Virus record (IMG/VR): IMGVR_UViG_3300045051_000987
Location: 1 to 64,000 of that record
Length of the DNA stretch: 64,000 bases
Source of the DNA: a virus
Reading direction: 5' to 3' (one strand)
Part shown: positions 10,386 to 63,156 of the stretch, in pieces
Layout of the letters: each line of letters opens with the position of its first letter
How positions within the stretch are numbered: the first letter of the stretch is position 1
Position numbers and translations under genes: made by a program
Notes under the pieces: model-generated
What the model was told of the DNA's origin: nothing
The model's database searches: none
What the model saw: only the letters and a program-made list of their open reading frames with translations

Positions 10386-10793
10386 TCAGGCGCGGCGCGC
10401 GCGCGGGGTGGGGACCGGGGAGGGCGCCGCCTCTTCGACCGGCTGCTCGTCGACGTGTTCACCCGGGTGAACACGCGCGGGCTCGGGCGCCGCCGCCTTG
10501 AGCGCGTTCTTCACGGGCTCGGGCGCGGGGTCGTCGGTCCACTTGAGCCGGCGCTCGTTGATCGCGGCCTCGATCTCCGGGCACTTCGTGACCTGCACGG
10601 GGAGCGACTCGCTCTCCTGGCCGGTCAGGATGGTGATCGAGTCGGGGAGCACGACGCGCTTCTCGGTCGATCCCCAGGTCCCGTCGGAGTGCTCCTCGCG
10701 ACGGTTGAAGAGGTGCCGAACGGGCGCGACCTGCGTGCTGAGGTTGGCGACGAACACGCGACGCGTGAGGTTCTTGAGCTTGCCAGTCGACAT
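10386..10793 (-). CDS. Hypothetical protein preceding sheath
   Basis: ATG 10793 with GGAGG; 135 aa. Confidence 0.65.
   Translation of the reverse strand: MSTGKLKNLTRRVFVANLSTQVAPVRHLFNRREEHSDGTWGSTEKRVVLPDSITILTGQESESLPVQVTKCPEIEAAINERRLKWTDDPAPEPVKNALKAAAPEPARVHPGEHVDEQPVEEAAPSPVPTPRARRA
10456..10473. repeat. 18-bp palindrome copy 1 (intragenic)
   Basis: TGTTCACCCGGGTGAACA. Confidence 0.95.
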
Positions 10794-10807
10794 CCGTTCC
10801 TCCGGTC

Positions 10808-10853
10808 GGGCCGAAGGTAGCTGGGCGTGATCGAATCGCGCAAGCCAGGGCCC
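10808..10853 (-). promoter_or_regulatory. 46-bp direct repeat copy A, putative late promoter for sheath-tube operon
   Basis: Identical to 24514-24559; TTGCGC-N18-TACCTT on minus strand. Confidence 0.7.
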
Positions 10854-11797
10854 TAGCGCCGCTCGACGCCGATCTCGATGTCGTCGGTGAGGTCCGGAAC
10901 CGCGGTGATCGCCTGATCGTTCTCGAAGCCGGGCATCACGAGCGTGTCGACGGCGACCACTGCGATCGTGCCCGAGCACGTGCGGAGGTTGCCCGGCGTG
11001 TTCGCCGAGTCGAGAGTGATCTCGCCCTCGCGCATGAGCTCGAAGCGCACGATCTCGCTCGAGCCCTCCGCGCGCGGAACGAGGAGGAAGGGGTTCCTCT
11101 TCGTGAAGTCGGCGAGCGCGCCCATGAGCGAGAGCGTGATCGAGAGGTTGTCGGCGATGGCGCCGAGCGTGAAGACGAGATCATCGGTGTCGGGCGCGCG
11201 GTGCTTCACGAAGACGCCCGTGCCCGGCGCGATCTCGCGCTTCTCGCTCACGTTCGTTCGGTAGACGACGTTCGGCCGCATCGTCGGGCCCGCGAGGAAG
11301 AGGCTCGGGAGTTTCGCCTCGCGCACGCCGCGGAGGATCTCCTCGGGGGCATCGGTCCAGTCGACGTGCGCGGTGAGCACGACCTCGGGGTAGACCTGGC
11401 GGATGAGCTCGAGCATGAGCACGCGCGTGACGCGCTCGATGTCGCTCTTCTCGCCGGTGAAGATCGGCCGCGCGTACTCGTAGGCGCTCGGGAGCGTCGC
11501 GACCTCGGCACCGATGGTCTCGCCATGCGGCCCGACGTTGCGCACCTCGAGCGCGAGCTCCTTGGCCGGATCGCGCCGCTCGGTCGTGACGTAGAGCGTC
11601 GTCGCGCTCGCGACGCGCACGAGGCGCGCCTCGGTCCCACCGATGAACACGCGCACGGTCGGAGGCGCCTCGGGGACGATGCCCGTCGGTGGTGGAGGGG
11701 GCGGGAGCGCGAAGTTGGTCCCGACGATCTTGATCACCTGACCGCCGCCGGAGTGACCGCGGGTCGGGGTGACGCTCGTGATGGTCGGGATCGCCAT
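10853..11797 (-). CDS. IPT/TIG-domain virion protein, probable tail terminator/neck
   Basis: PTITSVTPTRG..SGGQVIKIVGTNF IPT signature; start reassigned to ATG 11797 with GGAGG. Confidence 0.65.
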   Translation of the reverse strand: MAIPTITSVTPTRGHSGGGQVIKIVGTNFALPPPPPPTGIVPEAPPTVRVFIGGTEARLVRVASATTLYVTTERRDPAKELALEVRNVGPHGETIGAEVATLPSAYEYARPIFTGEKSDIERVTRVLMLELIRQVYPEVVLTAHVDWTDAPEEILRGVREAKLPSLFLAGPTMRPNVVYRTNVSEKREIAPGTGVFVKHRAPDTDDLVFTLGAIADNLSITLSLMGALADFTKRNPFLLVPRAEGSSEIVRFELMREGEITLDSANTPGNLRTCSGTIAVVAVDTLVMPGFENDQAITAVPDLTDDIEIGVERR

Positions 11798-11799
11798 GT

Positions 11800-12603
11800 C
11801 TACCTCCGCATGAAGCGTCCGGTGTTCGGATCGCGAGCAGGTCCACCGGGCCCGCGGAAGAGCCGCGAGATGAAGCCGAGGATGCCTCCGCCGCCGCGAC
11901 TGCGCCTCCCCCGCGTGAGGTTCGTCCCTCCGCCCTCGGTGAACGCGCCGAGCACCGACGCACCACGCCCCTGAGCTCCGGGCCCTCCGAAGTCGCCGCG
12001 GAGGTTCCACGCGACGCGCGAGAGGAAGCGATCGCGCACCTCTCCGCGGTTCGAGTAGAGCTTGTCGGCGACGGGCCGGATGAAGGGGCGCGCGGGGATC
12101 TGCACGACGATGATCCCGACGCCCGTCGAGGCCATGCCGCCCTTCGTCGTGCTCGAGTTGCCTTCGCGTCGGTGCATGATCGCGAGGAGCCGGCGCATCT
12201 TCGGCGTGACCTGGATGACGATCGGCCTCGAGCCCCACTCGTTGAGCTCGGCGACGTTCGCGAGCGGTCGACCATCGCGGTTGCGCGCGCTCCGCAGCAC
12301 GCCGACGAACGCCGCGCCCGCGCCCTGTCGGTGCACGCGGATGCTGTTCCGGAGATCGCCGCGGTTGAGGAGCGCCTTCGTCCCGTTGAACTTCTTGAAG
12401 CGGCGCACCGCGAGCGTCGAAGCCGAGAGGGGCTTAAAGGCCTGACCGCCCGGCGACTGATCACGGATGCCGGCGATCACCTGTGCGCGGAAGAACTGCG
12501 CCTCTTGAAGCACGGCCTGGTTGATCGCCCGGTTCACCCGGACGCTTCCCGTCGCGAGGATCCGACTCGCGAGCGCCCAATCGCCGACGCGGATCACCGC
12601 CAC
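11800..12603 (-). CDS. Virion morphogenesis / tail completion protein (Mu gpG, P2 gpS-like)
   Basis: LLNRGDLRNSI and IPARPFI motifs. Confidence 0.8.
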   Translation of the reverse strand: MAVIRVGDWALASRILATGSVRVNRAINQAVLQEAQFFRAQVIAGIRDQSPGGQAFKPLSASTLAVRRFKKFNGTKALLNRGDLRNSIRVHRQGAGAAFVGVLRSARNRDGRPLANVAELNEWGSRPIVIQVTPKMRRLLAIMHRREGNSSTTKGGMASTGVGIIVVQIPARPFIRPVADKLYSNRGEVRDRFLSRVAWNLRGDFGGPGAQGRGASVLGAFTEGGGTNLTRGRRSRGGGGILGFISRLFRGPGGPARDPNTGRFMRR

Positions 12604-12609
12604 GAGAGA

Positions 12610-13493: not shown

Positions 13494-13496
13494 GAG

Positions 13497-19476: not shown

Positions 19477-20598
19477 TCAGACCGCTGCGATCATCGGCGA
19501 GCGGAGGAACATCGCGAGGATCGTGTCGATCTCGGGGTCGCCCGTGAAGGCGCCGAGGAGCGGCGAGCCCGCGCGCCCCGAACCGAGCGAGCCCGGCGAG
19601 GCGTAGCTCACGGCCTGATCGCGCGTGCGCTCCGAGGTCACCACGCCGCTCGATGGACCGCCGCCCGCGCCGATGCCTCCGCCGTCCATGTGCCGGCGCA
19701 CGAGGAGCATGGCCGCGTGAGCGATGAGCATCGGCGTGCGCCCTTGGGGTGAGCCGTCGGGTTCGGTGAAGCCGAAGACGCCGCGCACGTGCACGTTCTG
19801 CTGGCCCACCGGCCACGCCCATCGAGACCACCCGACGTGCGTGCCGGCGACGCCACCGCGAACGATGCCGACGGGATCGTAGACCTCGAGCTTCGGGTTC
19901 TGCCGATCGTCGGGCTGCATGAGCCGCTGGGTGAGGTGCCGGTTGTAGACCCTCAGCGTGTCCTTCGAGTATGGGAGCGGTGAGCTCGCGGTCGTCGGGT
20001 AGGGCACGAGATCGACGCTCACGCCTTCGTCCTCGATCGCGACGATCGGCTCGTTGAGCATGAGCATCGGCCCGCCGCGCCCTGAGAGCGCGAGCGCCTT
20101 CGGCTCGGGCACGAAGCGCCGACCCGTGAAGGCCTCGATGTAGGCCGTCGCGCGCGCGAGGAGGAGCGCAGCTCGCGTGTCGCTGAGCACGCTCGGCGAG
20201 AAGCCCTCGGCGCGGAGCTCGGCGATCGTCGTGTAGTACGGCAGGCCCGTGAACGGCTTCGCGCCACCCGCGAGACGCTCGGTCGTCGTCGACCACGTGA
20301 TCTCTGGCCCGCCGTCCTCGAGCACCGCGAACCAGCGCACCGTGCGACGCCCGGGGCCCGGATCATCATCGGGAGCCCACGTCTCGGCCTGTGGGTCGTA
20401 CGTGCGCGCGCGGAAGTAGCCGGGGCCGAGCCGATCGCCCGTCGGGTAGTCCGTGTCGACGTCGACGGCGATGCGCACCATCGCCTCGTCGCCGGCATCG
20501 GTGAGCACCTCGACCTCGAGCGAGTGAGGCGTCACGAGGAAGCCCGCCGAGTCGACGACGAACGTCGTGGGGAGCTGCGGATAGTGCGCGGGCTGCAT
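19477..20598 (-). CDS. Head-to-tail adaptor
   Basis: YTTIAELRAEG...LLARATAYIEAFTGRRF and TPMLIAHAA connector-like segments. Confidence 0.6.
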   Translation of the reverse strand: MQPAHYPQLPTTFVVDSAGFLVTPHSLEVEVLTDAGDEAMVRIAVDVDTDYPTGDRLGPGYFRARTYDPQAETWAPDDDPGPGRRTVRWFAVLEDGGPEITWSTTTERLAGGAKPFTGLPYYTTIAELRAEGFSPSVLSDTRAALLLARATAYIEAFTGRRFVPEPKALALSGRGGPMLMLNEPIVAIEDEGVSVDLVPYPTTASSPLPYSKDTLRVYNRHLTQRLMQPDDRQNPKLEVYDPVGIVRGGVAGTHVGWSRWAWPVGQQNVHVRGVFGFTEPDGSPQGRTPMLIAHAAMLLVRRHMDGGGIGAGGGPSSGVVTSERTRDQAVSYASPGSLGSGRAGSPLLGAFTGDPEIDTILAMFLRSPMIAAV

Positions 20599-20670: not shown

Positions 20671-20688
20671 TGTTCACCCGGGTGAACA
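20671..20688. repeat. 18-bp palindrome copy 2 (intergenic)
   Basis: TGTTCACCCGGGTGAACA. Confidence 0.95.
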
Positions 20689-20697: not shown

Positions 20698-21315
20698 TCA
20701 GCGACCGCGACGACGCGACTGAGGCTGCGCGGCCGCCGCCTTCTCGGCCTTGCCCGGCTTCACCACCGGCGCGCGCGGCTCGCGACCGCCCTCCTCGAGC
20801 AGGTCGTCGCTGTCGTCGAGCTCTTGCTCACCGCCTTCGATCTTGCCGAGCTCGGAATCGCCGGACGTGTCCGCGTCGCCCTCGGCGCCGATGTTCGCGT
20901 CCTCGGTGCCCTCGGCTGGATCCTGCATCTTGCTCGGGTTCACGTCGTTCGTGCTGATCGCGCCGGAGGTCGAGGGCTTCTCGTGACGGTGCACGCGACG
21001 CGCGACGCGCTGCTCGTCAGAAGCCTCCACCGAGCGCTTCGTCTTGTCGCGCTGCTCGCGCTTCTCCATCGCCTCGGCCTCGGCCCGCGTCATCACGTCG
21101 AAGATGAGGATGCCGCCCTCGCGCTCGGGCTTGTCGTTGTGGGTGATCTCGCGGAGCTTCTCGACGAAGACCTCGTCGGTGAGCGTGTACCAGCCACGTG
21201 CTTCCTCGAAGCGAACGCCGTCGATCATGTAGCGGCCCGGCGTCTGCGGGACGCCCTTGCGCGGCTTGGCGGGTCGGGGCTTGAGACGGACCTTGTACTC
21301 GACGGCGTTGCTCAT
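20698..21315 (-). CDS. Hypothetical protein with acidic disordered tail
   Basis: 205 aa, GGAG SD. Confidence 0.7.
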   Translation of the reverse strand: MSNAVEYKVRLKPRPAKPRKGVPQTPGRYMIDGVRFEEARGWYTLTDEVFVEKLREITHNDKPEREGGILIFDVMTRAEAEAMEKREQRDKTKRSVEASDEQRVARRVHRHEKPSTSGAISTNDVNPSKMQDPAEGTEDANIGAEGDADTSGDSELGKIEGGEQELDDSDDLLEEGGREPRAPVVKPGKAEKAAAAQPQSRRRGR

Positions 21316-23569: not shown

Positions 23570-24508
23570 CTACTTCTTCGTGAAACGGACGCTCGGATCG
23601 GCCTTCTTCACGTCGTACTTGTCGGGCTGCGTCATGTCGTGCGACCAGCCGGGCGAGTTGTCCTCGTCCTCGAAGTCGACGTCACCGCCCTTGTTCGTGT
23701 CGGTGCGACCGTCGTCGACACCGGCGTTCGGGGTCTGACGCGCCTTCGCGATCTCGGCGACCTGCGTCGCCTGCGCGCCGAGCGCCTCGCCGTGCTTCGC
23801 CACGACGTTCGCGATCTTCTCCAGGCCCGACGCGAGCTTCGTCTCGAAGGGCACGAGGGCCTTCGCGAGAGCCTTCGTCACCACGTCGTCGACGTCGACC
23901 TCGGTCGGCGCCGGCTCGGGATCGACCGCGGGCGCCACAGGCTTCGCGATCGACTCGAGGAGCACGTTGATCGCATCGCGCGCCGCAGTGAGCTGGCTGA
24001 CGCGCGCCCCGGAGAACTGTGGGAGGCCTTTTGCGATGGGCTGGCCGTTCGCGTCCTTCTCGACCTCGCCGCGCTCGATGCCGAAGAGGAGCTCGGCGAC
24101 CTTCGTCACGATCTCCGCAGGCACCTCGACGAGGCCGGGCTGCTCGGTCGCACCCGCGACGAGCGCCTTGATCGCAGCGATGCGCGTCGCAGCCATCTCG
24201 AAGCGCTTGATCAGGCTCGCCTTCGCCTCGGGCGAGAGCGCGAGCACCGGCTCGTTCGTGGGTCCGCCGGTGCCCGTCTCGGGCTTCGCGGGGGTCGTCG
24301 GAGCCGAGCCCGGGGCCGGCGTCTCCTTGGTGACCGTGTGACCGCCCTTGCCGTCGCCCACGACCGGATCGCCCTTCTTCGTCGTCATGCTTGCACCCTT
24401 CACGATGAGGAAACACCGCTTGTTCGCCGCCCGATCGACGACGCTCACTTCTTTCGTCTCGATGTCGGTGAGCCGGTAGATCGTCGGATCCGTTTCGGGC
24501 GTCGCCAT
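23570..24508 (-). CDS. Scaffold-like protein carrying an N-terminal protease strand
   Basis: LTDIETKEVSVVDRAANKRCF N-terminus, then helical/disordered body; upstream of capsid. Confidence 0.7.
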   Translation of the reverse strand: MATPETDPTIYRLTDIETKEVSVVDRAANKRCFLIVKGASMTTKKGDPVVGDGKGGHTVTKETPAPGSAPTTPAKPETGTGGPTNEPVLALSPEAKASLIKRFEMAATRIAAIKALVAGATEQPGLVEVPAEIVTKVAELLFGIERGEVEKDANGQPIAKGLPQFSGARVSQLTAARDAINVLLESIAKPVAPAVDPEPAPTEVDVDDVVTKALAKALVPFETKLASGLEKIANVVAKHGEALGAQATQVAEIAKARQTPNAGVDDGRTDTNKGGDVDFEDEDNSPGWSHDMTQPDKYDVKKADPSVRFTKK

Positions 24509-24562: not shown

Positions 24563-24580
24563 TGTTCACCCGGGTGAACA
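24563..24580. repeat. 18-bp palindrome copy 3 (intergenic)
   Basis: TGTTCACCCGGGTGAACA. Confidence 0.95.
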
Positions 24581-24582: not shown

Positions 24583-25641
24583 TCACGCGGGCTGTCGGAT
24601 CGCCGAGCCGCCGATCGAGAAGCCGGTGAAGCCGCCGCTCTTCGTCAGCTCCCACAGGTCGTCATCGACAACGCGGATCGCGAGGAGCCACGTGCCAGCC
24701 TTCACGACCTCGGTCCCGATCGTGAAGTCCACCGGCGCGATGTAGCTCTCGAGCACCTTGAGCTTCCCCGTCACGATCTCGGTGTGCTGCTTCCCGAGCT
24801 GCGCGTGGTGCTCCATGAAGCGGTGCGCCGTCTTGCGCACTTCCTCGGCGGAGTACGTGTCGAGCTGCGAGTCGACGACATCGGGCTCGAGCACGATGCC
24901 GAACACGAAGCGCTCCTCGATCGAAGGCTCGGCGGTGTCCTTCCGCACGAGGCGCACGCTGTGGCTCTTCGTCGTCGACGCCGCGACACGTTCGACGTGC
25001 GGAGCATCCTCGATGAGCGCGAGCGGGGAGCCGAAGAGCACGTCGGGACGCGTCGCGAGCTTGAACACCGAAGCGAGGCCCGCGAGCGCCGTGCGGTGCT
25101 CAGGCGAGTCGACGACGGCGATCACGGTGCTCGGCCCGAGCTTGCTGATCGCGCTCGCGACGCTCTCCGCGGTGAGCGGCGTCTTGTCCGGATCACCGTC
25201 GAGCTCGCCCTTCATGACGACCGCCACGGGCTGATCACTCGCCGGCACGACGCAGAGCGCTCCCGCGACCTCGAGCGAGGTGCGCGCGACGAGGGGCTCC
25301 TCGCCGTCGACCTTCGCGAGGAAGGCCTCCCACACCACGCGGCGGAGCACGCCGTCGACCTTGAGCACGTCGGCCGCCGCGATCACGCGTTGCTCGACGA
25401 GCTCGTCACGGACGTCACGCGCCTCTTCGAGGCTCGCCGCTTTCCAGTAGCGGAACGACGGGGGCACGTCCTGCTCGAGCGACGGCGGGAGCGCCGAGAC
25501 GCCGAGCGGGGGCATGAGGCCCTTCACGACCGCCTCGACGGTGAGCACCGGCGGGAGCGTGCGGGCCCCGATCCCCTCGAACGCGAGCGCCGGATCGAGC
25601 GCCGGAGCCGCGTCCTTCCTGACCTTCGTGCGAGCTCGCAT
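24583..25641 (-). CDS. Prohead protease (XkdF-like domain at C-terminus)
   Basis: FGIVLEPDVVDSQLD...KQH...VLESYIAP...GTW...W...KSGGFTGFSIGG. Confidence 0.85.
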   Translation of the reverse strand: MRARTKVRKDAAPALDPALAFEGIGARTLPPVLTVEAVVKGLMPPLGVSALPPSLEQDVPPSFRYWKAASLEEARDVRDELVEQRVIAAADVLKVDGVLRRVVWEAFLAKVDGEEPLVARTSLEVAGALCVVPASDQPVAVVMKGELDGDPDKTPLTAESVASAISKLGPSTVIAVVDSPEHRTALAGLASVFKLATRPDVLFGSPLALIEDAPHVERVAASTTKSHSVRLVRKDTAEPSIEERFVFGIVLEPDVVDSQLDTYSAEEVRKTAHRFMEHHAQLGKQHTEIVTGKLKVLESYIAPVDFTIGTEVVKAGTWLLAIRVVDDDLWELTKSGGFTGFSIGGSAIRQPA

Positions 25642-25643
25642 GA

Positions 25644-26534
25644 TCAGGTCGTCGGTGCCTTGCCGGAGTCGCGACCCCAGAACGGCTCTTCGTCGCCCGT
25701 GGTGCCCTTGTTCTTGTAGATGCCCGCCTTCTCGTCGAAGTCGGCGCTCGCCATGTCCATCGGCCACGCGGTCTCGCGCGTGGCCGGTGCGGGGCTCGGG
25801 GCCGGAGCTGCGGGAGGCGCCGCCGCCGGGATCGCCTTGCCCACGAGCGCGGCCTTCGCCGTCGCCTCACCGAGGAGCCCGCTCATCTGAGCGATCACGT
25901 GCTCGGTGCGCGCGGCCGCCTGCAACGCGCTCACGGTGTCGCTCACCGACCAGCGGAAGTCGCAGTCGAGGAGGTCGGAGCCCTCCTCGGGCACGTAGTT
26001 GAAGATCGCGGCGATCTTCGAGAGGCACGCGAGCGCCTCGCCGGCCTTCGCGATCGTCGTCTTGCCGTCCTCGCTCTTCGCGAGCTTCGCGCGCGCGGGC
26101 GCCGCCTCGGTCGCCTTCGCGACCTTGAAGAGCGACTTGAAGAGGTCGGTGAGCTCGCGCGAGCCGTCCGCCTTCGTCGTGAAGATCACGTCGTTCTCGA
26201 ACTTGATGTTCGAGTCGCCCGTCGGCGTGATCGCGGGCTGCGGGATGTCCGCGGTGAACGTCTCGATCTTCGCGGTCGTCGCGCCACCGGCGAAGACGGC
26301 CTTCGCCGCCGTGACCTGCGCCTTGAGGTGCTCGAGGCGAGCCTTCTTCTGCTCGCTCTTGCCGGCGAGCTCGTCGGCCGCCGCCTTCTCGAGCTGATCG
26401 AGCGCGTGCGCGGTGAGCTTCTCCGCGGTCACCTCGATGGAGGTCGCCGTTGCGGGAGCGGCGCCGAGCGCGTCGATCTTCGCGAGGACGGTGTCGAGGG
26501 GCGAGACGGGCGCGGGCGTTGCGGACGTGGTCAT
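25644..26534 (-). CDS. Hypothetical Ala/Lys-rich head-region protein
   Basis: 296 aa, GGAGG SD. Confidence 0.65.
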   Translation of the reverse strand: MTTSATPAPVSPLDTVLAKIDALGAAPATATSIEVTAEKLTAHALDQLEKAAADELAGKSEQKKARLEHLKAQVTAAKAVFAGGATTAKIETFTADIPQPAITPTGDSNIKFENDVIFTTKADGSRELTDLFKSLFKVAKATEAAPARAKLAKSEDGKTTIAKAGEALACLSKIAAIFNYVPEEGSDLLDCDFRWSVSDTVSALQAAARTEHVIAQMSGLLGEATAKAALVGKAIPAAAPPAAPAPSPAPATRETAWPMDMASADFDEKAGIYKNKGTTGDEEPFWGRDSGKAPTT

Positions 26535-26964: not shown

Positions 26965-26982
26965 TGTTCACCCGGGTGAACA
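26965..26982. repeat. 18-bp palindrome copy 4 (intergenic)
   Basis: TGTTCACCCGGGTGAACA. Confidence 0.95.
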
Positions 26983-31086: not shown

Positions 31087-31104
31087 TGTTCACCCGGGTG
31101 AACA
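31087..31104. repeat. 18-bp palindrome copy 5 (intergenic)
   Basis: TGTTCACCCGGGTGAACA. Confidence 0.95.
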
Positions 31105-46785: not shown

Positions 46786-46786
46786 G

Positions 46787-47027: not shown

Positions 47028-47033
47028 GGCTCG

Positions 47034-47043
47034 ATCATGCCGC
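47034..47043 (-). promoter_or_regulatory. Class M motif, 6 nt before ATG 47027
   Basis: GCGGCATGAT. Confidence 0.7.
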
Positions 47044-47051
47044 GCTCGCCC

Positions 47052-47435
47052 TCAGCGGCCGCCTGCGCGGATCTCACGTGCTCGGGAGCTGTGCCAGCGC
47101 ATGACGCTCCACAGCGTCGCCGAGGCCTTCTCGTCGCCGTGGATGGCCTCCGAGGCGATGCGGCATCGCTCGGCGCTCAAGTCGTGCTCTCGTGCGCGGA
47201 TCTCGAGCGCCCATTCCTCTGCGGTGGCCTCGGGATGCCTCAGCACGACGTCGAGGCGCTCGGTGGCCTTCATGAGCCGCACGAGAGGCGCCGAGGAGCG
47301 TGACGGGCTCGGAAAGGCTGCCTGAGCGTCGCACGCCTCCCGCGCGGCTCGATGGGCTTCGCAGGCCTCGCGCAAGGCCGCGAGCTGCTTCTTCGTCTCC
47401 TCGAGCTCGGTGGTGAGCTGCTCTACGGTCTTCAC
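47052..47435 (-). CDS. Hypothetical helical protein
   Basis: GTGA overlap start. Confidence 0.55.
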   Translation of the reverse strand: MKTVEQLTTELEETKKQLAALREACEAHRAAREACDAQAAFPSPSRSSAPLVRLMKATERLDVVLRHPEATAEEWALEIRAREHDLSAERCRIASEAIHGDEKASATLWSVMRWHSSRAREIRAGGR

Positions 47436-47755
47436 TCGGATCCTCGCTTCATGAGGTGCGCGGCGAGCTTCTGTCCGGCCTTCTTCACGCGGTGCACGTC
47501 CGTGGGGTGCTCGATCCCGCCTCGGAGCCATCCCGCGGGGTCGCCGAGGTCGGCGTCGATGGAGGAGGCCACCACGCGTGCCGCGTAGCGGTCTGCCGAG
47601 GCCTGATCGGGGAACTGAGGCCTCGTGCCCTTCTTCGGGCGTGGTGGGCGCTTGGGGAGCGCGCGCGGTGGTGTCGCATCGGTCGCGATCCCGATGATGC
47701 CGGAGCCGAACCCGGCACCGACCGCGAGGTGTTCACCCGGGTGAACACGCTTCAC
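47432..47755 (-). CDS. Hypothetical protein
   Basis: 107 aa, coupled both sides. Confidence 0.5.
   Translation of the reverse strand: MKRVHPGEHLAVGAGFGSGIIGIATDATPPRALPKRPPRPKKGTRPQFPDQASADRYAARVVASSIDADLGDPAGWLRGGIEHPTDVHRVKKAGQKLAAHLMKRGSE
47730..47747. repeat. 18-bp palindrome copy 10 (intragenic)
   Basis: TGTTCACCCGGGTGAACA. Confidence 0.95.
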
Positions 47756-47877
47756 GGCGTCACCGTGACGTGCACGTGCTCGGCGATGAGCACGATCAGC
47801 CGAAGGAGCGCGGCGAGGCCTTGGATGGCTCCGGCGATGACGAGGAGCGTGATGAGCCGTTCTTCGTGCTTCCTCAT
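47752..47877 (-). CDS. 41-aa hydrophobic peptide
   Basis: MRKHEERLITLLVIAGAIQGLAALLRLIVLIAEHVHVTVTP; 4-bp overlaps on both sides. Confidence 0.55.
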   Translation of the reverse strand: MRKHEERLITLLVIAGAIQGLAALLRLIVLIAEHVHVTVTP

Positions 47878-48572
47878 CGGGCCGTCCATCGAGGCACGCC
47901 GGTGTCGCTTCCCTTGCCGCGATCGGCGAGACCGAGGCTCGCGAGCTTGCCGAGGATGTCGAGCACGCGTCCGGGGCTGATCGCCGTCGCGAGCGATGCC
48001 CCCTTGTTCAGCCGTGAGGCGAGGTCATGAGCTCCCGAGACCTCTCCCGCGGCCTTGAGCGCATCGAAGACGCGTTGCTCGCTCTTCGAGAGCTTCTTCG
48101 CGAGCGGCTTGGGCTCGGCCTTCGGTTCTTCCTCCTCGTCAGGCGTCGACGGCTTGGGTTGTCGGAGGAGCTTGTTGAGCCGCCCACGTCCGATCTCGAG
48201 CACGTCGGCCGCGTCCTGACGGCTCATGCTCTGCTCGACCACAAGCTCGTGCGCGACGCGTCGCATACGGCTCTCTTCGGCCTCGATCGCGAAGCGGAGA
48301 TCCATCGTGGCTCTGTGAGCCTCCGACACGAGCTTCCCGACCGGCCCGCCCGACATGACCTGCACGAAGAACGTGAAGGGCTCCTTCTCGTCGAGACGGA
48401 TGGCGTCACGAAGAGCATCGAGCACTTCGGCGAGCGTGCGGCCGCGCGCGCCCGGTCGGAGGAGCTTCGGATCCATGTCTCGAGGCGAGCCGCGCCACGG
48501 GTAGTGAAGATCGACGTCCGGCTCGTAGTAGACGCCGATCCTGTACTCCTTGAGCTTCTTCTTCGGCTTCAT
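47874..48572 (-). CDS. HicB-like protein with HTH domains
   Basis: ARGRTLAEVLDALRDAI, then MSRQDAADVLEIGRGRLNKLL, then winged-helix-like C-terminus. Confidence 0.55.
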   Translation of the reverse strand: MKPKKKLKEYRIGVYYEPDVDLHYPWRGSPRDMDPKLLRPGARGRTLAEVLDALRDAIRLDEKEPFTFFVQVMSGGPVGKLVSEAHRATMDLRFAIEAEESRMRRVAHELVVEQSMSRQDAADVLEIGRGRLNKLLRQPKPSTPDEEEEPKAEPKPLAKKLSKSEQRVFDALKAAGEVSGAHDLASRLNKGASLATAISPGRVLDILGKLASLGLADRGKGSDTGVPRWTAR

Positions 48573-48575
48573 CGA

Positions 48576-48923
48576 TCACCATCCCGGCGGGACGATGCCC
48601 CGCAGACCGCACGTGAGACAGTCGTTGAGGTTGCTGTTCTCGCTGTTCGGGACCGTGCTGCGGTGCTCGCAGCACTTCTGGCATGGCCGGTCCGTGTTCA
48701 CCTTCGAGGCGACTGAGACGCCCTTCGCGACACGTCGAGCGAGATCGAGGCGCGAGACGAATGCAGCGAGGTCGACGGCCGCGTGCGCTACCTGCTGAGC
48801 TGCGTACGGGCCGGGAGGCGACCGATCGGCGAGCGTGAGCTCGAGGCCTCGCACGAGAGCCTTGAGGTGGCTCAGGCGCTCAGCGACGCGCTTCTCTTCG
48901 GTCTCGAGCATGACGGTGCTCAT
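48576..48923 (-). CDS. Hypothetical protein with zinc ribbon
   Basis: CQKC...CLTCG; ATGA overlap. Confidence 0.55.
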   Translation of the reverse strand: MSTVMLETEEKRVAERLSHLKALVRGLELTLADRSPPGPYAAQQVAHAAVDLAAFVSRLDLARRVAKGVSVASKVNTDRPCQKCCEHRSTVPNSENSNLNDCLTCGLRGIVPPGW

Positions 48924-49564
48924 GACCGCGGTTCGTCCTTCCAAGGATCGAGACCCACGCGGAGCGTGATCCTCTCCGCGGGCGTGATCATGTCGAGCAC
49001 GTCGGGGATCAGGAACCTCGGGAGCGATTCGCCGCTCACGACTTCGATCATGCGTCGGCGCGTGAAGACGCACGCACGACGGACGATCTCACGCACGAGC
49101 GCAGCTCGCTCCTTCTCGACCGGCGAGGGATCGACGACGAGCGGGCGCCCGTTGTCGGTCATCTTGAGGTCGGGGAACTGCTCGGCGATGTCGCCCGCAG
49201 CGATGCCGGCGACGTGCCTGCACAGTCCCATCGCGCTGAGCTCTTCGGGGAAGGGGCCGAAGACCTTGAACGCCGCCATCCCACCCGCGAGACCGAGCTC
49301 GGGAGGTCCGACGCTCGCCGAGCCGCGCACCATGACCGTGACCTCGTAGTAGCCACCATGCGCGAGCTCCTCGAGATCGACGGGCTGCTCGGGCTCGAAG
49401 TCGACCTTCGCCGTGCGCGCGCTGTCCCTCGCCGACATGAGCGACGTGCGTGCGTTCGCGAGGTGCGCGTGGAGGGCCTGTCGAGCGCTCAGCGGTTCCG
49501 CTCCGCTGAGAAGATCGATCATCTCGTTGAGCTGCTCGATCATGCCTTCGATGTGCTTGCTCAT
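48920..49564 (-). CDS. Hypothetical protein
   Basis: 214 aa, coupled both sides. Confidence 0.65.
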   Translation of the reverse strand: MSKHIEGMIEQLNEMIDLLSGAEPLSARQALHAHLANARTSLMSARDSARTAKVDFEPEQPVDLEELAHGGYYEVTVMVRGSASVGPPELGLAGGMAAFKVFGPFPEELSAMGLCRHVAGIAAGDIAEQFPDLKMTDNGRPLVVDPSPVEKERAALVREIVRRACVFTRRRMIEVVSGESLPRFLIPDVLDMITPAERITLRVGLDPWKDEPRS

Positions 49565-52171: not shown

Positions 52172-52527
52172 CCGTGTGCGTCTCCCGCGAGGTCGAGAAG
52201 TCGATCGAGCTCTTGCAGCGCACCGAAGGGACCTTCGGCATCGCCCCGCGAGCATCCGAGCTTGTCGAGGATCTCGTTGAGGAGCCGTCGATCCTCGCTC
52301 TCGACGGTCTCCTTCAAGTCGGCGCCTTCGCGGATCCGCTTCTGACACGAGGAGCAGATCACGACGCTCAGCATGCCCGCCCGATAGAGGTTCGCGTGAC
52401 CGACCATCGTGTTCTTCACCTCGAGCTGATCGACCTGCTCGTTCGTCAGGAAGAAGCCCGCTTCGGAAGTCGGCTCGCCGGTCGTGCTCACCACACCCCG
52501 ACATCGGATGCAGACCGCGCGGCTCAC
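52168..52527 (-). CDS. Hypothetical protein with CxxC pairs
   Basis: GTGA overlap; CIRC and CSSC. Confidence 0.55.
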   Translation of the reverse strand: MSRAVCIRCRGVVSTTGEPTSEAGFFLTNEQVDQLEVKNTMVGHANLYRAGMLSVVICSSCQKRIREGADLKETVESEDRRLLNEILDKLGCSRGDAEGPFGALQELDRLLDLAGDAHG

Positions 52528-52934
52528 TTCGGCAGCTCCGACGGCCACCTCACGACCTCGATCTGTTCGAGGTTCGCGTCGACGAGGAGCAAGCGCTCCA
52601 TGAGCAAGCCGTCGGTCAACGCGTTCACGCTCAACGGGAGGTAGCGCCGGATCGACGTGAGCTTGAAGTGAAAGAGAAGCGCTCGATCACCGCGGCTCTC
52701 ACGCACGACGACCTCTAGATACCGCTCGAAGGCGAACTTCTCCGAGAGCCACGTCTCGAGGCCCCCCTTCTCGTCGAGACAGTACGCGCGCGAGATCACG
52801 AGACCTTGCGGCGTCGATTCGACCGAGGCTACCGAGAACCATTCGGCGTCGTCGCGTTCGGGGAAGGGACAGCGGAGAGCGAAGGCGAACGTGCCGAAAG
52901 TCGTGCTGTGCTGGAGCGGGGCTGCGGGGATCAT
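52524..52934 (-). CDS. Hypothetical protein, possibly a diverged tail-tube-like fold
   Basis: AAGGAGG SD; weak colinear similarity to 7589-8065. Confidence 0.55.
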   Translation of the reverse strand: MIPAAPLQHSTTFGTFAFALRCPFPERDDAEWFSVASVESTPQGLVISRAYCLDEKGGLETWLSEKFAFERYLEVVVRESRGDRALLFHFKLTSIRRYLPLSVNALTDGLLMERLLLVDANLEQIEVVRWPSELPK

Positions 52935-52953: not shown

Positions 52954-52971
52954 TGTTCACCCGGGTGAACA
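52954..52971. repeat. 18-bp palindrome copy 11 (between class M motif and SD)
   Basis: TGTTCACCCGGGTGAACA. Confidence 0.95.
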
Positions 52972-53429: not shown

Positions 53430-53789
53430 TCACAGTGTGGTGTCCTTCCGGAGCTTGATCAGCCGATGGGTGCGCGCGAACGCGCCGAGCGTGAGGTTCC
53501 GATCGACGCCCTGCGCGTGGCGGAGGTGCACGAGGAGCTCGGAGGCCTTCCACTCCTCGGCGCCATCGAGCTTCACGAAGGTCACGGCGCCGAGCGTCGC
53601 GCGCGGTGAGCGCGGATCGCGCACCGTCCACACCGAGCCTTCGAGGAAGGCCGAGAGGTCGTCCATCGTCACCGCGAAGGCGTCTCCCCACTCCCACGAG
53701 CCCGGGATCTCGTCACCGAGCTCAGCGGGGACGGCGAACGGATCCGCGGATGCGAGGAGGGCCTCGACCTGTTCCTCGAGCGTAGGCAT
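53430..53789 (-). CDS. Hypothetical protein
   Basis: 119 aa, TGATG overlap. Confidence 0.55.
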   Translation of the reverse strand: MPTLEEQVEALLASADPFAVPAELGDEIPGSWEWGDAFAVTMDDLSAFLEGSVWTVRDPRSPRATLGAVTFVKLDGAEEWKASELLVHLRHAQGVDRNLTLGAFARTHRLIKLRKDTTL

Positions 53790-55336
53790 CACCCGGTGAA
53801 CCGCTTGAAGAACGCGACCACGCGATCACGCGTGCGTCCGCGCTGGTAGGTCTGCGGCTCGAAGTCGGCGAGCGTCCTCGCGTCGAGCTCACGCGCGCGC
53901 CGGGTGTTCTCGTGGTTGAGGATGTCCATCACCTCGCCCGCTTCCCCGCGCACGTCCGGGCGGCTCTCTCGGAGCTGCGCGGTCGCCATGCCGAGCACGT
54001 GCTCGAACCGCTTGTGCGCGAGCATCTTCGGATCGAGGACACGCCACGTCTCGAGCACGCCATCGCTCACGAAGCGCGAGTCGAGGTCATCGAAGCCGTC
54101 GGGCTTCACGCGGACGCAGCGCCACCCCACGAGGTCTGACTGCGTCTGCTTCTCGATGAGCTTCACAGTCGTGCCCGAGATCGACTGACGCACCTGACCG
54201 CGCTCGAGCGGCTCGCGGTTCCGAGGATCGATGCTCTGATCGATCGCGTTCCACAGCTCGTCTCGAGCAGGGTCGCCCCATCGCTCGGCGATGTTCGCGC
54301 GGATGCGCGTGAGCTGCTTCTCGAGCTCTTCGAGCGCTTCGTCGAACGTGCGGTGCGGCTGAGGGCCGAACGCTTCGACCATGATCGAGAGGAGCCGCTT
54401 CCGAAGCGTGTCGAGCCGTTCGCCGAGGTCGAAGTGCTCGTGCGTGAAGATGCGCTCGATCACGTGCTGCATGGTGTCGCCGCTCGCACCCGCGGCGCGG
54501 AGGTGGTGCACCGCTGCGAAGTAGAGCCGCGTGCGGAGGTTCTCGATTGTCGGCTTCTCGACGATGGTCCCCTTCGGGAGCTTGATCTTGATCGTCGCGA
54601 AGATCCCGTCGCGCGTCGATCGCTCGATCTGCACGTCCTCGACGAGCTCGGCGTTCGGCGCCATCACGTAGCCGAAGACGTCGACCGTCGACGTGTGGAG
54701 CACCTCACCGACGCGCGCGCCGGCCTCGCCGACGGGCGTGACGTGGATCTTTCGCTCGACCGTGCGGAGCTGCTCGTCGAGCGCCGGTGCTGGCTCGGTG
54801 TTCCCGAGCACGAACGCATCGCGCACCTTCGATGCGACCGCGGCCGCGCCGATGAGTGCTTCGCTGAGCACGACGACGGGCCTACCGGGGGTCGCGTGTC
54901 CGCTCTCGTAGAAGAGGCGCATCTCGTTCGCCCACGTCGAGAGCGTGCGCATCTCCTCGCGCGTGATGGTGAAGGTCTCTTCGTCCCTGCTCAGCATGAT
55001 CTCTGCTCCTCTCACGAACTGCTCGAGCAGCTCGGGCCATCCTTCGACGTCGGCGTGCCCCGTCTCGATCGCGCTCACGTCCGCGATGCTCAGATCGAGG
55101 ATGTAGGCCACCTCGCTCAGCTTGAGCTCGCGCTCGCGACGAAGGCGCCGGAAGCGTTCACCACGCTCGCGGAGCACCTCGCTCGGCTCCTCGAACGTCA
55201 TGACCTCGCCGATGCCGCACGGGAGCTCCTCGGCCGCCGCTTGGCACGGGCCGGAGCCATCGGGACCGCAGCACGTGCGCGTCACGAAGCTGCGCGTCGA
55301 TCCGGTGGGCTTGGCCCTCTTGATCTTGAACGCCAT
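53789..55336 (-). CDS. Xre-type HTH domain-containing protein
   Basis: GERFRRLRRERELKLSEVAYILDLSIADVSAIETG. Confidence 0.7.
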   Translation of the reverse strand: MAFKIKRAKPTGSTRSFVTRTCCGPDGSGPCQAAAEELPCGIGEVMTFEEPSEVLRERGERFRRLRRERELKLSEVAYILDLSIADVSAIETGHADVEGWPELLEQFVRGAEIMLSRDEETFTITREEMRTLSTWANEMRLFYESGHATPGRPVVVLSEALIGAAAVASKVRDAFVLGNTEPAPALDEQLRTVERKIHVTPVGEAGARVGEVLHTSTVDVFGYVMAPNAELVEDVQIERSTRDGIFATIKIKLPKGTIVEKPTIENLRTRLYFAAVHHLRAAGASGDTMQHVIERIFTHEHFDLGERLDTLRKRLLSIMVEAFGPQPHRTFDEALEELEKQLTRIRANIAERWGDPARDELWNAIDQSIDPRNREPLERGQVRQSISGTTVKLIEKQTQSDLVGWRCVRVKPDGFDDLDSRFVSDGVLETWRVLDPKMLAHKRFEHVLGMATAQLRESRPDVRGEAGEVMDILNHENTRRARELDARTLADFEPQTYQRGRTRDRVVAFFKRFTG

Positions 55337-56983: not shown

Positions 56984-57982
56984 TCACGGCGTGAAGTCGG
57001 CCTTCGGCGTGCTCGTCTCCGAGATCTCGACCTGCAAGCCTCGCAAGCGCTTCGTGACGCGCGCGGGCGTGCGCGGGTCGAGATCGATGCCCACCCCACG
57101 ACGGCCGAGCACGCACGCCGCCTCGAGCACCGTGCCGGTCCCGACGAACGGATCGAGCACCACGTCGTTCGGCCGCGAGCTCGCGAGGATGCACCGGCGC
57201 GGGAGCTCCACCGGGAACGTCGAGTAGTGGTCGCCCTTGTACCGCCCGCCTCCGAACGACCACACGTCTCGGAGGTTCGCGCCCATCGGCTCGCCGTTCT
57301 CGTCGAGCTTCGCCGCGCGCTTCTTGCCCCACCGCCCGAGCCCGTACGACGCAGCTCGAGGATCGGGAACCGTCGCCGATCGCGCGGGGCCCTGCGCCTG
57401 TAGGCGGAGCGTGTTCGGCCTGAGCGGCTGTCGCACGGCGTTCGCGTCGTAGAAGTAGTGCGCGCGCCGCGAGAAGAGGAACACGTGCTCGTGAGACGAC
57501 GTCGGCCGATCCTGCATCGAGCCCGGCACGGGCGAGGGCTTCGACCAGATCACCTCGCTGCGAAGGATCCACCCGTCGGCTTGGAGCGCGAGCGCGACGC
57601 GCCACGGGATCCCGATCAGGCTCTTGCGCGGCAGACCGCACAGCGTGCTCTTGCTCTCGATGTTCGGAACGAGGTCATGTCGCTCGGGCGTCGAGAGCTT
57701 CGAGCTCTTGCCCGTGCTCCCTCGACGCGAGCCCGAGTAGCTGTCGCCGAGGTTCAACCACATCGTGCCGTCCTTCCGCAGCCCGCGGCGCGCCTCACGG
57801 AACGTGAGCACCATCGCCTCGACGAACGCATCGGGCGTCGGCTCCATCCCGATCTGCCCGTCGAGCCGGTAGTCGCGGAGGTGCCAATAGGGCGGGCTCG
57901 TCACGATCGTCTGCACGTTCTCGACGGTGCCGGCTAGCTCGCGCGCGTCGCCGACGAGGATCCGAAACCGCTCCTCGGTCAT
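56984..57982 (-). CDS. DNA methyltransferase, N4-cytosine/N6-adenine beta class
   Basis: TSPPY, LNLGD, IWSK, H..TFP.EL, DPFVGTGT. Confidence 0.92.
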   Translation of the reverse strand: MTEERFRILVGDARELAGTVENVQTIVTSPPYWHLRDYRLDGQIGMEPTPDAFVEAMVLTFREARRGLRKDGTMWLNLGDSYSGSRRGSTGKSSKLSTPERHDLVPNIESKSTLCGLPRKSLIGIPWRVALALQADGWILRSEVIWSKPSPVPGSMQDRPTSSHEHVFLFSRRAHYFYDANAVRQPLRPNTLRLQAQGPARSATVPDPRAASYGLGRWGKKRAAKLDENGEPMGANLRDVWSFGGGRYKGDHYSTFPVELPRRCILASSRPNDVVLDPFVGTGTVLEAACVLGRRGVGIDLDPRTPARVTKRLRGLQVEISETSTPKADFTP

Positions 57983-58194
57983 CGGTGTTCACCCGGGTGA
58001 ACAGGCTTCGAGAGCTCGGCGCGCGCCGCGATCATCGCGTGCTTCAACGGCGAGCCGGTCGGGAGCTCCTCGGTGCTCATGTCGTGAAGGCTGAGGTAGT
58101 CCTCGATCGACGTCGTGAGCAGCTCGAGCACCTCGTGCGAGACGCGCGCGCGCTCGGCGTGCTGCTCCGCTGTGACCTGTGGGCGTGTCGCCAT
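57979..58194 (-). CDS. Hypothetical protein
   Basis: 71 aa, ATGA overlap with methyltransferase. Confidence 0.6.
   Translation of the reverse strand: MATRPQVTAEQHAERARVSHEVLELLTTSIEDYLSLHDMSTEELPTGSPLKHAMIAARAELSKPVHPGEHR
57986..58003. repeat. 18-bp palindrome copy 12 (just upstream of methyltransferase start)
   Basis: TGTTCACCCGGGTGAACA. Confidence 0.95.
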
Positions 58195-61743: not shown

Positions 61744-61745
61744 CC

Positions 61746-62012
61746 TCAGCCCCCGTTGCCCGGCGTGCGGTAGTCCGCGCGCTCGTCGAGCTCCACGTGG
61801 AAGGACGACCCGAGCATGATGCGCGCGGGATCGCTGAGCGCCTTGGCGAGACGATCGAGCCGCTCCTTCGTCGGAGGGAAGACGACGACCGTGCTCTCGC
61901 GCGGCCGCACGATGACCTTGAGCACGAAGCCGAACGGTTCGACCCCCACGACGTCGAGCCCGTGCAGCTCAGCCTCGGCTTCGACGTCGGTGCGCGTGAT
62001 GATGTAGCTCAT
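61746..62012 (-). CDS. Hypothetical protein
   Basis: ATGA overlap. Confidence 0.55.
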   Translation of the reverse strand: MSYIITRTDVEAEAELHGLDVVGVEPFGFVLKVIVRPRESTVVVFPPTKERLDRLAKALSDPARIMLGSSFHVELDERADYRTPGNGG

Positions 62013-62338
62013 CGCTCGCGCTCCACCGGGGGCTTCGCGTGATGCGCGTGCGCGGGGCAGAAGCACACGGGGAGCTCGCGCACCTCGGGACCAGGACCGT
62101 TCGGCATGACGATCAGCGGCGAGACCTTGAACGTCACGAGCCCGATGATCCACTCCGCGGGGAGGCTCGAGAGCAGCTCTTCGGAGTCGAGCACGAACAC
62201 GCCGCTCCGATCGGGCACGAGGAGCGGGAGCGCGTCGACCTCGTGCGACGCGAGGCATCCGGGCGCCGAGCATCGCGCCGTCGTCTTGACCGAGATCGCG
62301 AGCCGGATCGGTTCGGGGAACTTCTGCGGGGTAGGCAT
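62009..62338 (-). CDS. Hypothetical Cys-containing protein
   Basis: CSAPGC...FCPAH. Confidence 0.55.
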   Translation of the reverse strand: MPTPQKFPEPIRLAISVKTTARCSAPGCLASHEVDALPLLVPDRSGVFVLDSEELLSSLPAEWIIGLVTFKVSPLIVMPNGPGPEVRELPVCFCPAHAHHAKPPVERER

Positions 62339-62344
62339 GGCCCC

Positions 62345-62354
62345 ATCATGCCGC
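62345..62354 (-). promoter_or_regulatory. Class M motif, 6 nt before ATG 62338
   Basis: GCGGCATGAT. Confidence 0.7.
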
Positions 62355-62358
62355 CCGA

Positions 62359-63156
62359 TCACTGCGCGTCGGCGATCACGTCGTCTTCGTCGTCGCGGAG
62401 CGTCTCGCCCTCGCCGGGCATCTGTTCACCCGGGTGAACACGCGTCGCCTTCCGCTCTTCGAGGTAGCTCAGCACGCGCGAGAGGCGCGGTTCAGCGAAC
62501 CCGAGCGGGCGCAACGATCCATCGCCGAGCACGGTGTCTCGCCCCTCGAAAAGAGCGGCCACGCCCGCCGTCGCAGCGCCGCACACCGGATCGCAGACGA
62601 CGTCGCCGGGGCGCGAGTAGTCCTCGACGATCTGCCGCATCGCCCAGAGCGGCTTACCGCCCGTCATGAGGAGCTTCTCGCGCGGGCCCATGTACGCGCC
62701 GCGTCCGATGGTCCCCCAGCTCGAGAGCTCGGCGGGGCGCGCGACGAGGATGAAGTAGCTCCACGGGCTCGGGCCGTCGCCTCGAAGGCGCACGCGCGAG
62801 CCGGTCACCACGAGAGGGATCGGAGGGAAGCCGGCGTAGTACCCTGCGCGCTCGGCCGCGCGTTGCCATGCGGGCCAGAGCACGTGATCGGTGATCGAGA
62901 CGAGCCACCCTCGATGCACCTCACGCCACGTGTCGACGAAGACGTGCACGTCTTCCGGCGTCCAGAACGCGTAGGGGATCGACGAGCGCCCGCCGGGCCG
63001 CGTGCTGTCGTGCCCGGTGTGCGTGCGCTCGGAGTAGGGCGTGTCGGCCGTGATGAGGTTCACCACCTCACGGCGCGCGCGCAGCTCGCGAGCGAGGTCG
63101 GTGGCGTCAGCGTGGAAGAGCGAAACGCGCCGGTGCTCGAGGAGGGAGATCGTCAC
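62359..63156 (-). CDS. Divergent N4/N6 DNA methyltransferase-like protein
   Basis: DTPY for DPPY; KPLWAM..IV..YSRPGDVVCDPVCGAAT. Confidence 0.75.
   Translation of the reverse strand: MTISLLEHRRVSLFHADATDLARELRARREVVNLITADTPYSERTHTGHDSTRPGGRSSIPYAFWTPEDVHVFVDTWREVHRGWLVSITDHVLWPAWQRAAERAGYYAGFPPIPLVVTGSRVRLRGDGPSPWSYFILVARPAELSSWGTIGRGAYMGPREKLLMTGGKPLWAMRQIVEDYSRPGDVVCDPVCGAATAGVAALFEGRDTVLGDGSLRPLGFAEPRLSRVLSYLEERKATRVHPGEQMPGEGETLRDDEDDVIADAQ
62423..62440. repeat. 18-bp palindrome copy 13 (intragenic)
   Basis: TGTTCACCCGGGTGAACA. Confidence 0.95.

Follow-up and report, generated by a model that had tools for sequence, protein, structure and literature searches.

Twenty-one identical palindromes, more evenly spaced than at random, in the genome of an uncultured phage

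The palindrome and its placement

The stretch of DNA considered here (the window) comprises bases 1-64000 of the 113,552-bp IMG/VR virus record IMGVR_UViG_3300045051_000987 (G000), an uncultured phage genome of 68% G+C that is rated complete, and the subject is an 18-bp perfect palindrome, TGTTCACCCGGGTGAACA, dispersed along it. A preliminary description of the window had listed 13 identical copies; all 13 are exact, and the window contains no additional match with three or fewer mismatches (0.01 expected from dinucleotide shuffles). The whole record holds 21 exact copies, eight of them beyond the window (at 73181, 82277, 89710, 95341, 95390, 100724, 104879, and 113223). The mismatch spectrum of the record is 21 / 0 / 0 / 0 for zero to three mismatches, with background beyond, and the 18-mer is the sole over-represented dyad in the genome. 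Nearly all genes lie on the minus strand, according to gene calling based on G+C content at third codon positions (GC3). The copies within the window are placed as follows:

Copy 1, 10456-10473: coding, with VHPGEH as its in-frame peptide, upstream of the tail sheath gene (8102-10345); the open reading frame (ORF) that contains it stops 29 codons further on, at 10386
Copy 2, 20671-20688: intergenic, between the stop of 20698-21315, 9 nt away, and, 57 nt downstream, the GCTACCTTCG promoter-like motif in front of the head-tail adaptor gene (19477-20598), which has a leaderless ATG
Copy 3, 24563-24580: intergenic, between the stop of the prohead protease gene (24583-25767), 2 nt away, and the GCTACCTTCG ahead of 23570-24508, 35 nt downstream
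Copy 4, 26965-26982: intergenic; the stop at 26986 precedes it by 3 nt, and the CAGGAT-6 nt-ATG of 26586-26924 follows after 28 nt
Copy 5, 31087-31104: intergenic; the stop of 31108-31800 precedes it by 3 nt, and the GCTACGCTCG-7 nt-ATG of 30725-31042 follows after 29 nt
Copy 6, 37128-37145: internal to gene 36775-37356, read as FTRVNT, in a linker
Copy 7, 45009-45026: 5' end of the large terminase gene (terL) or its junction with the small terminase gene (terS); the long terL ORF (43106-45076) has its terS stop / GTGA overlap 47 nt above the copy
Copy 8, 45863-45880: terS codons 9-15; the span is +27 to +44 counted from a leaderless ATG (45906) that a GCTAGGCTCC motif precedes
Copy 9, 46053-46070: last 10 codons of ORF 46040-46600, 130 nt upstream of the terS promoter motif
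Copy 10, 47730-47747: gene junction, 4 nt after the stop of a 45-aa ORF (47752-47889) and in codons 4-9 of ORF 47432-47755, whose start is a GTGA overlap
Copy 11, 52954-52971: 5' untranslated region (UTR), 22 nt after the CATGAT of a GCGGCATGAT motif (53003-52994) and 7 nt before the Shine-Dalgarno (SD) sequence AAGGAGG of 52524-52934
Copy 12, 57986-58003: gene junction, within the final 8 codons of 57979-58194; the ATG of an N6_N4 methylase gene (56984-57982) follows 3 nt later
Copy 13, 62423-62440: 3' part of gene 62359-63240, read as VHPGEQ, with 27 codons left to the stop and a GCGGCATGAT motif (62354) 68 nt downstream

Over the whole record, frame-by-frame inspection places 12 of the 21 copies in intergenic DNA or 5' UTRs, eight in the first or last ~30 codons of a gene, and a single one in a gene interior. 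Against a non-coding share of roughly 10-20%, this is a clear enrichment outside coding sequence (P from 1e-7 to 2e-4, according to the non-coding fraction assumed). Nine copies lie 2-20 nt past a stop codon. The earlier placement of individual sites was accurate: those at 20671, 24563, 26965, and 31087 stand 2-9 nt past a stop and ahead of a -10-like motif, that at 52954 lies between promoter motif and SD sequence, and other copies impose VHPGEH or FTRVNT near protein ends, with 37128 internal. Coding copies use all three frames and read VHPGEH, FTRVNT, or CSPG-stop; the existence of three peptide readings, one of which includes a stop supplied by the motif, implies that selection acts on the nucleic acid and not on the peptide. 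Beyond the window, gene 73184-73582 takes its stop from the TGA of the copy at 73181-73198, and this copy also spans the start of the next gene. The copies at 95341 and 95390, 49 bp apart from start to start, lie directly ahead of the first gene of the replication block, which encodes an SNF2-type helicase; this pair is the most operator-like arrangement in the genome.

The tail genes at the two ends of the record adjoin each other in a relative, which indicates that the record is circularly permuted. On the circular map, the copies are more evenly spaced than random: the coefficient of variation (CV) of the gaps is 0.60, where random placement gives 0.94 (P 0.009), and the largest gap measures 10.8 kb vs 19.7 kb expected (P 0.0025); with the two doublets collapsed, the P value is ~6e-4.

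The bases around the core are also symmetric. C is found at -2 in 17 of the 21 copies, G at -1 in 16, C at +1 in 19, and G at +2 in 15, so that the full element is a 22-bp dyad (CG-core-CG) with an invariant core of 18 bp and no conservation further out; neither an orientation signal nor any asymmetry is seen. The hexamer CCCGGG at the centre occurs 39 times in the genome (39.6 expected under a Markov model), and its centre differs in relatives, for which reasons a reading as restriction site was rejected. The proposal that this hexamer makes binding sensitive to modification is likewise weakened, as relatives have GCGC or ACGT at the same place.

The palindrome does not appear to be a host repeat. 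A search of 185,579 species genomes for the exact 18-mer returned 27 contigs with one match each, in unrelated taxa and mostly within genes; no genome in the search had more than one copy. In IMG/VR, one further contig contains the 18-mer and is unrelated. Contigs of other viruses that contain the motif or its Y/R variants (among them G001 and G002) were set aside, as they have no proteins in common with the phage. An assembly or adaptor artefact was rejected as well, given that reading frames stay open through the copies and that variant copies occupy orthologous places in independent metagenomes.

Site evolution in relatives and the form in which the site is read

Homologues of TerL with 58-76% identity were found in metagenomes, where relatives were sampled around terL; relatives of 107,907 and 90,861 bp have a TerL of 72-74% identity, and a near-identical sibling genome of 111,684 bp was also found. 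In three of the relatives, L036, L038, and L042, the place that matches copy 45009, at the 5' end of terL, is occupied by a perfect palindrome that differs from one relative to the next:

Present phage: G-TGTTCAC-CCGG-GTGAACA-C
L036: GCGTCCAC-CCGG-GTGGACAC
L038: GCGTCTAC-GCGC-GTAGACGC
L042: GCGTCCCG-ACGT-CGGGACGC

Different palindromes at orthologous positions mean that the sites are inherited in place and change symmetrically. The family can be summarized as G-Y-G-T-Y-Y-A-C-N4-G-T-R-R-A-C-R-C, with GTTCAC, GTCCAC, and GTCTAC as half-sites. L038 contains an additional site, GCGTCCAC-GCGC-GTGGACGC, located 1 nt past a stop codon and 9 nt before TACGGT-7-ATG, and its two copies differ by a symmetric double change. 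A fourth relative, L037, is syntenic with the window at 35-45 kb; its orthologue of gene 36775-37356 has CGTCCACCCGGGTGGACA exactly at the position of copy 37128 (peptide STRVDT vs FTRVNT here), and a second palindrome, TGTCCACCCGGGTAGACA, lies just ahead of a C5 methylase gene. In the distant relatives G004, G005, and G006 (TerL 37-39% identity), no invariant array was found. The dyad CGAGGA-NN-TCCTCG, with 18 copies in G004, was rejected as an array; its centre and flanks vary, its spacing is random (CV 0.98), and it is read as a by-product of codon usage.

This pattern bears on the idea that the copies are selfish or recombinogenic mini-palindromes, which would multiply by insertion and be retained at tolerated places, such as points of module exchange. 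The copies are indeed identical, they sit at gene borders, protein ends, and linkers, and 18 bp amounts to six codons. However, orthologous copies have diverged in place and in concert in the relatives, the copies are spaced more evenly than at random, and neither target duplications in the flanks nor terminal repeats are seen. The proteins needed for such spread were not found either: tyrosine integrase (PF00589) and serine recombinase/resolvase (PF00239) gave no match at E values up to 1, a search by which remote forms are not excluded, and there was no match to the Y1 transposase of repetitive extragenic palindromes (RAYT; PF01797). A selfish origin is thus extremely unlikely. The repetitive extragenic palindromic (REP) elements associated with RAYT also differ in form, being imperfect palindromes of 20-40 bp with a conserved 5' tetranucleotide, whereas the dyad here is perfect and has neither a GTAG nor a CGTC head.

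Nine copies shortly past stop codons, with all genes on one strand, could also be taken as RNA hairpins at transcript 3' ends, where they would terminate, stabilize, or mark mRNAs for processing, and the changes seen in relatives do preserve complementarity. However, the predicted hairpin has a 7-bp stem, A/U-rich at its base, and a 4-nt CCGG loop; its folding energy (~-7 to -14 kcal/mol with flanks) is no better than that of shuffled sequences in five of six contexts. No U tract (T run) follows the palindrome, and a terminator scan gave no match at the palindrome sites; an intrinsic terminator was rejected on these grounds. The copies within the last 4-29 codons or in 5' UTRs would, as terminators, truncate or block their own genes, which counts against an RNA role, as does the imperfect copy of L037, where the sense strand has a C-A mismatch. 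Nor would a hairpin require 21 copies to be exactly identical. All three versions of the centre tetranucleotide (CCGG, GCGC, and ACGT) are self-complementary, which is needless for a hairpin loop and points to a two-fold symmetric protein on double-stranded DNA instead. A function as RNA hairpin is therefore very unlikely.

It is highly probable that the palindrome is a dyad bound by a protein on duplex DNA. The original suggestion of a site for a dimeric phage protein fits the evidence best, namely a perfect dyad with no orientation, symmetric change in the relatives, which carry palindromes of their own, and absence as a repeat from the species genomes searched.

The position of the sites can be set against two classes of promoter-like motif, which occur on the coding strand only, with none on the other strand. 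In the whole record, GCGGCATGAT is found 19 times and GCTAC[CG]NTCG 17 times; examples from the window are:

GCGGCATGAT, minus strand: 62354, 59328, 56978, 55870, 53003, 51127, 47043, 43100, and 37343
GCTAC[CG]NTCG, minus strand: 45922, 41060, 31057, 24527, 20613, 13534, 10821, 6343, and 3530

Most motifs of both classes have an ATG or GTG 5-8 nt downstream, which implies leaderless starts and suggests that transcription is largely leaderless and organized in an early/middle and a late class. Of the palindromes, ten have one of these 36 motifs within 150 nt. Seven of the ten are upstream of the motif, at 3, 29, 35, 57, 61, 68, and 130 nt; in the 3-nt case (95341), the dyad covers the -35/spacer region of a GCGGCATGAT promoter and ends 7 nt before the CATGAT hexamer. 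The three downstream copies are 104879 (which starts 8 nt after a TACCAT hexamer), 52954 (in the 5' UTR, before the SD sequence), and 45863 (at +27 to +44 of terS). The palindrome itself was rejected as a promoter element: it lies anywhere from 3 to 130 nt away from the -10 motifs, and for 26 of the 36 motifs no copy is near. Between copy 46053 and the terS promoter, an 11-mer, GGACAGACTCA, occurs twice (~45988-46032, 34 nt apart from start to start); this duplication could be an additional regulatory or packaging signal.

Candidate binding proteins

Several proteins of the phage contain helix-turn-helix (HTH) or related domains, and the candidates considered, with terL for reference, are:

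53789-55336, minus strand: 515-aa protein whose first ~110 aa combine a Cys4 knuckle with an XRE/C-protein-like HTH, followed by a unique tail of 400 aa
39514-40179, minus strand: ParB-like protein (phrog_620 at 3e-25)
47874-48572, minus strand: protein with hints of HicB-like, HTH, and winged-helix domains
45073-45906, minus strand: terS, small terminase gene, directly upstream of terL; leaderless ATG at 45906
43106-45076, minus strand: terL, long ORF whose homologues carry Terminase_6N
89478-89966: Fis-like ORF, an HTH candidate, whose 3' part contains copy 89710
63895-64389 (L005 895-1389): sigma-region-4-like ORF, an HTH candidate of 164 aa that crosses the window end (sigma-70 region 4 match 2.7e-9)

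The product of 53789-55336, proposed earlier as a binder, is still the best candidate, though a putative one. Its HTH gives a weak HTH_31 match. Homologues cover residues 3-107 only and are small proteins of 95-220 aa, such that the module of ~110 aa (FVTRxCCGPDGxGPC...PCG knuckle and XRE HTH) is elsewhere found only as a stand-alone protein; for the C-terminal 400 aa, no homologues were found. In the AlphaFold2 (AF2) model, with a confidence score (pLDDT) of 90, the HTH (residues 53-114) best matches the controller (C) proteins C.AhdI, C.BclI, and C.Esp1396I, and also DdrO and ClgR, with a root-mean-square deviation of 1.7-1.9 over ~60 residues. Template modelling (TM) scores of this predicted fold against C proteins are 0.65-0.78 on the target. 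The sibling has the gene, and the distant relatives with no array lack it; the palindrome nearest to the gene is 835 nt away.

Dimeric controller proteins bind palindromes of ~19 bp. Those of restriction-modification (R-M) systems are XRE-type HTH homodimers, which the predicted HTH of 53789-55336 resembles, and two copies of the palindrome here and one in L037 adjoin methylase genes. In contrast, R-M systems have one or two C-boxes ahead of the C gene vs 21 sites genome-wide here, the candidate has an extra Cys4 knuckle and a 400-aa tail, and no restriction enzyme was recognized among the proteins scanned.

The protein 47874-48572, also put forward in the preliminary description, has to be dropped: it is an ORFan with no homologue in 5.8 billion proteins, and it is missing even from the near-identical sibling. 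In 63895-64389, region 4 begins at residue 61 and the N-terminal part reads as too short for a region 2; this ORF may encode a small HTH regulator rather than a sigma factor.

The ParB-like protein 39514-40179 deserves closer attention, as the sites could be docking or loading sites of a ParB/KorB/Noc-type protein (this one or an unrecognized one) that slides from evenly placed sites to silence, organize, or mark the genome, and that might escort the products of neighbouring DNA-modification genes. The even spacing (CV 0.60, largest-gap P 0.0025) would suit such a role. A ParB-like gene is encoded without ParA (PF13614, no match at E up to 1, remote forms not excluded), which KorB and Noc types do not need, and the AF2 model (pLDDT 88) aligns over residues 25-185 with ParB, Noc, and KorB at Z ~9 (9.1-9.6 to ParB and Noc). 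The palindrome shares TGTT...AACA with parS and CCCGGG with the Noc site. KorB acts from operators at variable distances (PMC11790492), Cluster O mycobacteriophages likewise encode a ParB-like protein (PMC4351075), and phage ParB-like partners activate DNA-modifying enzymes (bioRxiv 10.1101/2025.08.14.668559). The segment 37268-40179 contains the ParB-like gene followed by C5-methylase-like and CmoA-like genes; all three are kept in L037, and the ParB-like/C5-methylase pair is kept in the distant relative G004. By analogy, this neighbourhood fits the published ParB-like partners of DNA-modifying enzymes.

However, the same publication describes those partners as lacking a DNA-binding domain, and the features of 39514-40179 agree poorly with a binder. 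Helices 119-178 overlay the region of the ParB DNA-binding domain, yet residues 115-185 are strongly acidic (net charge ~-9, counted on the alignment). This acidic stretch contains the conserved motifs GGYDDxML and GLGWSDEQ, which are common to homologues from phages with other palindromes. The protein has GHGR where ParB has GERR, Pfam ParB_N gives no match, and homologues exist without the array in G004 (the ParB-like/methylase pair) and in Microbacterium phage Cinna. The protein is consequently disfavoured as the binder, and docking sites of this type are unlikely. The same evidence speaks against dispersed centromere sites like those of N15, an option raised at first together with a look-up of parAB: no ParA, integrase, or resolvase was recognized within the limits given above, and the one ParB-like gene, which lies in the window, is acidic where DNA would be bound and also occurs in array-less relatives.

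A more elaborate version, improbable in our view, regards the evenly spaced palindromes as self-marks of the phage chromosome, where a site-specific loader and the ParB-fold protein near the C5-methylase-like and CmoA genes would carry silencing or DNA hypermodification over phage, and not host, DNA. If true, it would amount to a genome-wide addressing system in a lytic phage with no role in partition.

Finally, TerS has an N-terminal HTH-like stretch, and three palindrome copies flank and enter its gene. The sites could then be packaging (pac-type) signals recognized by the small terminase, with the three-copy terS/terL cluster as main initiation region. In and around terS and the 5' end of terL, three copies fall in a space of 1.06 kb, and palindromes also flank terS and occupy the 5' end of terL in L036, L038, and L042. 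Homologues of terS lie just before terL in these three relatives and in L039. However, the remaining 18 copies along the genome would mean wasteful cuts, the association is partly a sampling effect of relatives chosen around terL, the two copies of L037 are 5-9 kb from terL, and G004 and G005 keep terS homologues with no array. TerS is a minor candidate, and packaging signals are a very improbable explanation.

Transcription control at gene borders and comparison with known systems

The 21 sites are quite possibly operators or roadblocks of a phage-encoded dimeric HTH protein that controls transcription at gene borders throughout the genome; this is the reading that we tentatively prefer. In such a mechanism, the 18-mer would be the invariant core of a 22-bp dyad site on double-stranded DNA, read by a homodimeric phage HTH protein that would have co-evolved with its sites in the phage clade. 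Some sites would overlap the -35/spacer, the transcription start, or the 5' UTR of single-element promoters, and others would lie directly past stop codons or in last codons. The bound protein would most likely serve as operator and roadblock across the genome, with transcription units shut off or insulated, in a mode akin to stoperators or KorB operators with membership of neither family. The sites themselves, their symmetry, placement, and even spacing, their absence as a repeat from the genomes searched, and their symmetric evolution in place are observed. Protein binding, the identity of the binder, and an effect on transcription are what we infer here, and the fact that the phage encodes several HTH proteins is consistent with this.

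Several points weigh against transcription control. About half of the sites are not near a recognizable promoter, and the authors of the Cluster O study thought control of transcription initiation unlikely for the same reason (PMC4351075). With no integrase or immunity module, a role as lysogenic repressor is unsupported. The even spacing suggests a whole-genome function rather than gene-specific control, and the symmetric double change in L038 would also fit selection for self-complementarity.

The phage looks like a lytic myovirus. Besides the structural genes named above, genes for the portal and major capsid proteins are recognized, and a replication block encodes SNF2-type and DnaB helicases, a primase, UvrD, a family B polymerase, and RecA-, Mre11-, and Rad50-like proteins. 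No immunity module was found in the phage genome. Several DNA methylases and ArdC are also encoded. Four 6-bp palindromes are missing from the whole record: CTGCAG (0 vs ~17 expected under a Markov model), TTCGAA (0 vs ~24 expected under a Markov model), and likewise TGGCCA and CCTAGG. Their absence looks like avoidance of host restriction sites.

The closest parallel to the array is found in Cluster O mycobacteriophages such as Corndog, where a 17-bp dyad, TGTTCGG-N3-CCGAACA, occurs in 34 exact copies and three with one change; the function of these repeats is unexplained, and a dimeric binder was predicted (PMC4351075). Both arrays consist of tens of invariant copies across a phage genome with hardly any degenerate ones, and both combine short intergenic, gene 5' end, and coding sites with no orientation rule. 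Outer TGTTC...GAACA arms are common to the two, and neither phage type has an integrase or known lysogeny, while genes for a ParB-like protein, for cytosine methylases, and for an HNH endonuclease are present in both. The Cluster O motif is absent from its host; the 18-mer of the present phage has at most one copy in any of the species genomes searched. In contrast, the dyad of the present phage is perfect through its centre, whereas that of Cluster O has a variable centre of 3 bp. The even spacing, the coding on one strand, and the relatives with co-evolving variants are also particular to the present case. The phages are unrelated: a megablast search with window positions 44000-49000 as query gave no DNA match among 50,697 deposited phage records, in which no close relative of the phage was found.

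Stoperators of Cluster A mycobacteriophages, bound by the L5 repressor gp71, are similar in being many near-identical sites at gene borders genome-wide, and the bound protein blocks elongation as well as initiation (summarized in PMC4351075). Stoperators are, however, asymmetric sites of 13 bp oriented with transcription, in temperate phages with an immunity repressor, whereas the sites here are symmetric and no lysogeny genes were found. The roadblocks of this kind that the preliminary description had considered thus stay plausible as a mechanism, while the symmetry of the sites and the lytic appearance of the phage set them apart.

The KorB operators (OB) of IncP plasmid RK2 offer another comparison, since KorB is dimeric and acts on promoters up to 1.5 kb away (PMC11790492). 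In both cases a dozen or more copies of one palindrome lie at variable distances from promoters. KorB is, however, a ParB-family CTPase clamp that works with a partner, KorA, whereas the sole ParB-fold protein here has no credible DNA-binding domain and does not track with the array.

Late promoters of P2 and P4 that depend on Ogr/Delta contain TGT-N12-ACA (PMC3931495), which the 18-mer literally fits, and in our reading of the flanks five copies ahead of structural genes are centred at ~-50 to -60 from presumed starts, with one at -81. In contrast, relatives have CGT...ACG, so that the TGT/ACA ends are not kept, and most copies are not at that position. The Ogr/Delta zinc-finger activator (PF04606) gave no match at E up to 1.

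In actinophage phiC31, the conserved inverted repeats (CIRs) are ~17-bp inverted repeats found at many intergenic loci of the genome and bound by one phage repressor. Unlike the present phage, phiC31 is temperate and has an integrase.

Arrays of invariant palindromes have thus already been described in lytic phages, of which Cluster O mycobacteriophages are an example, and they have never been explained. The present case adds a spacing that is more even than chance, orthologous positions that are kept while their sequence changes symmetrically among relatives, and sites that can be set against a readable promoter grammar of two single-element, mostly leaderless classes. These facts make it practical to search for the binder among a handful of candidate proteins, and likewise to address the question of insulation vs genome marking. 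If the same logic holds in other phages with such arrays, the palindromes would represent a widespread, unnamed layer of phage genome organization.

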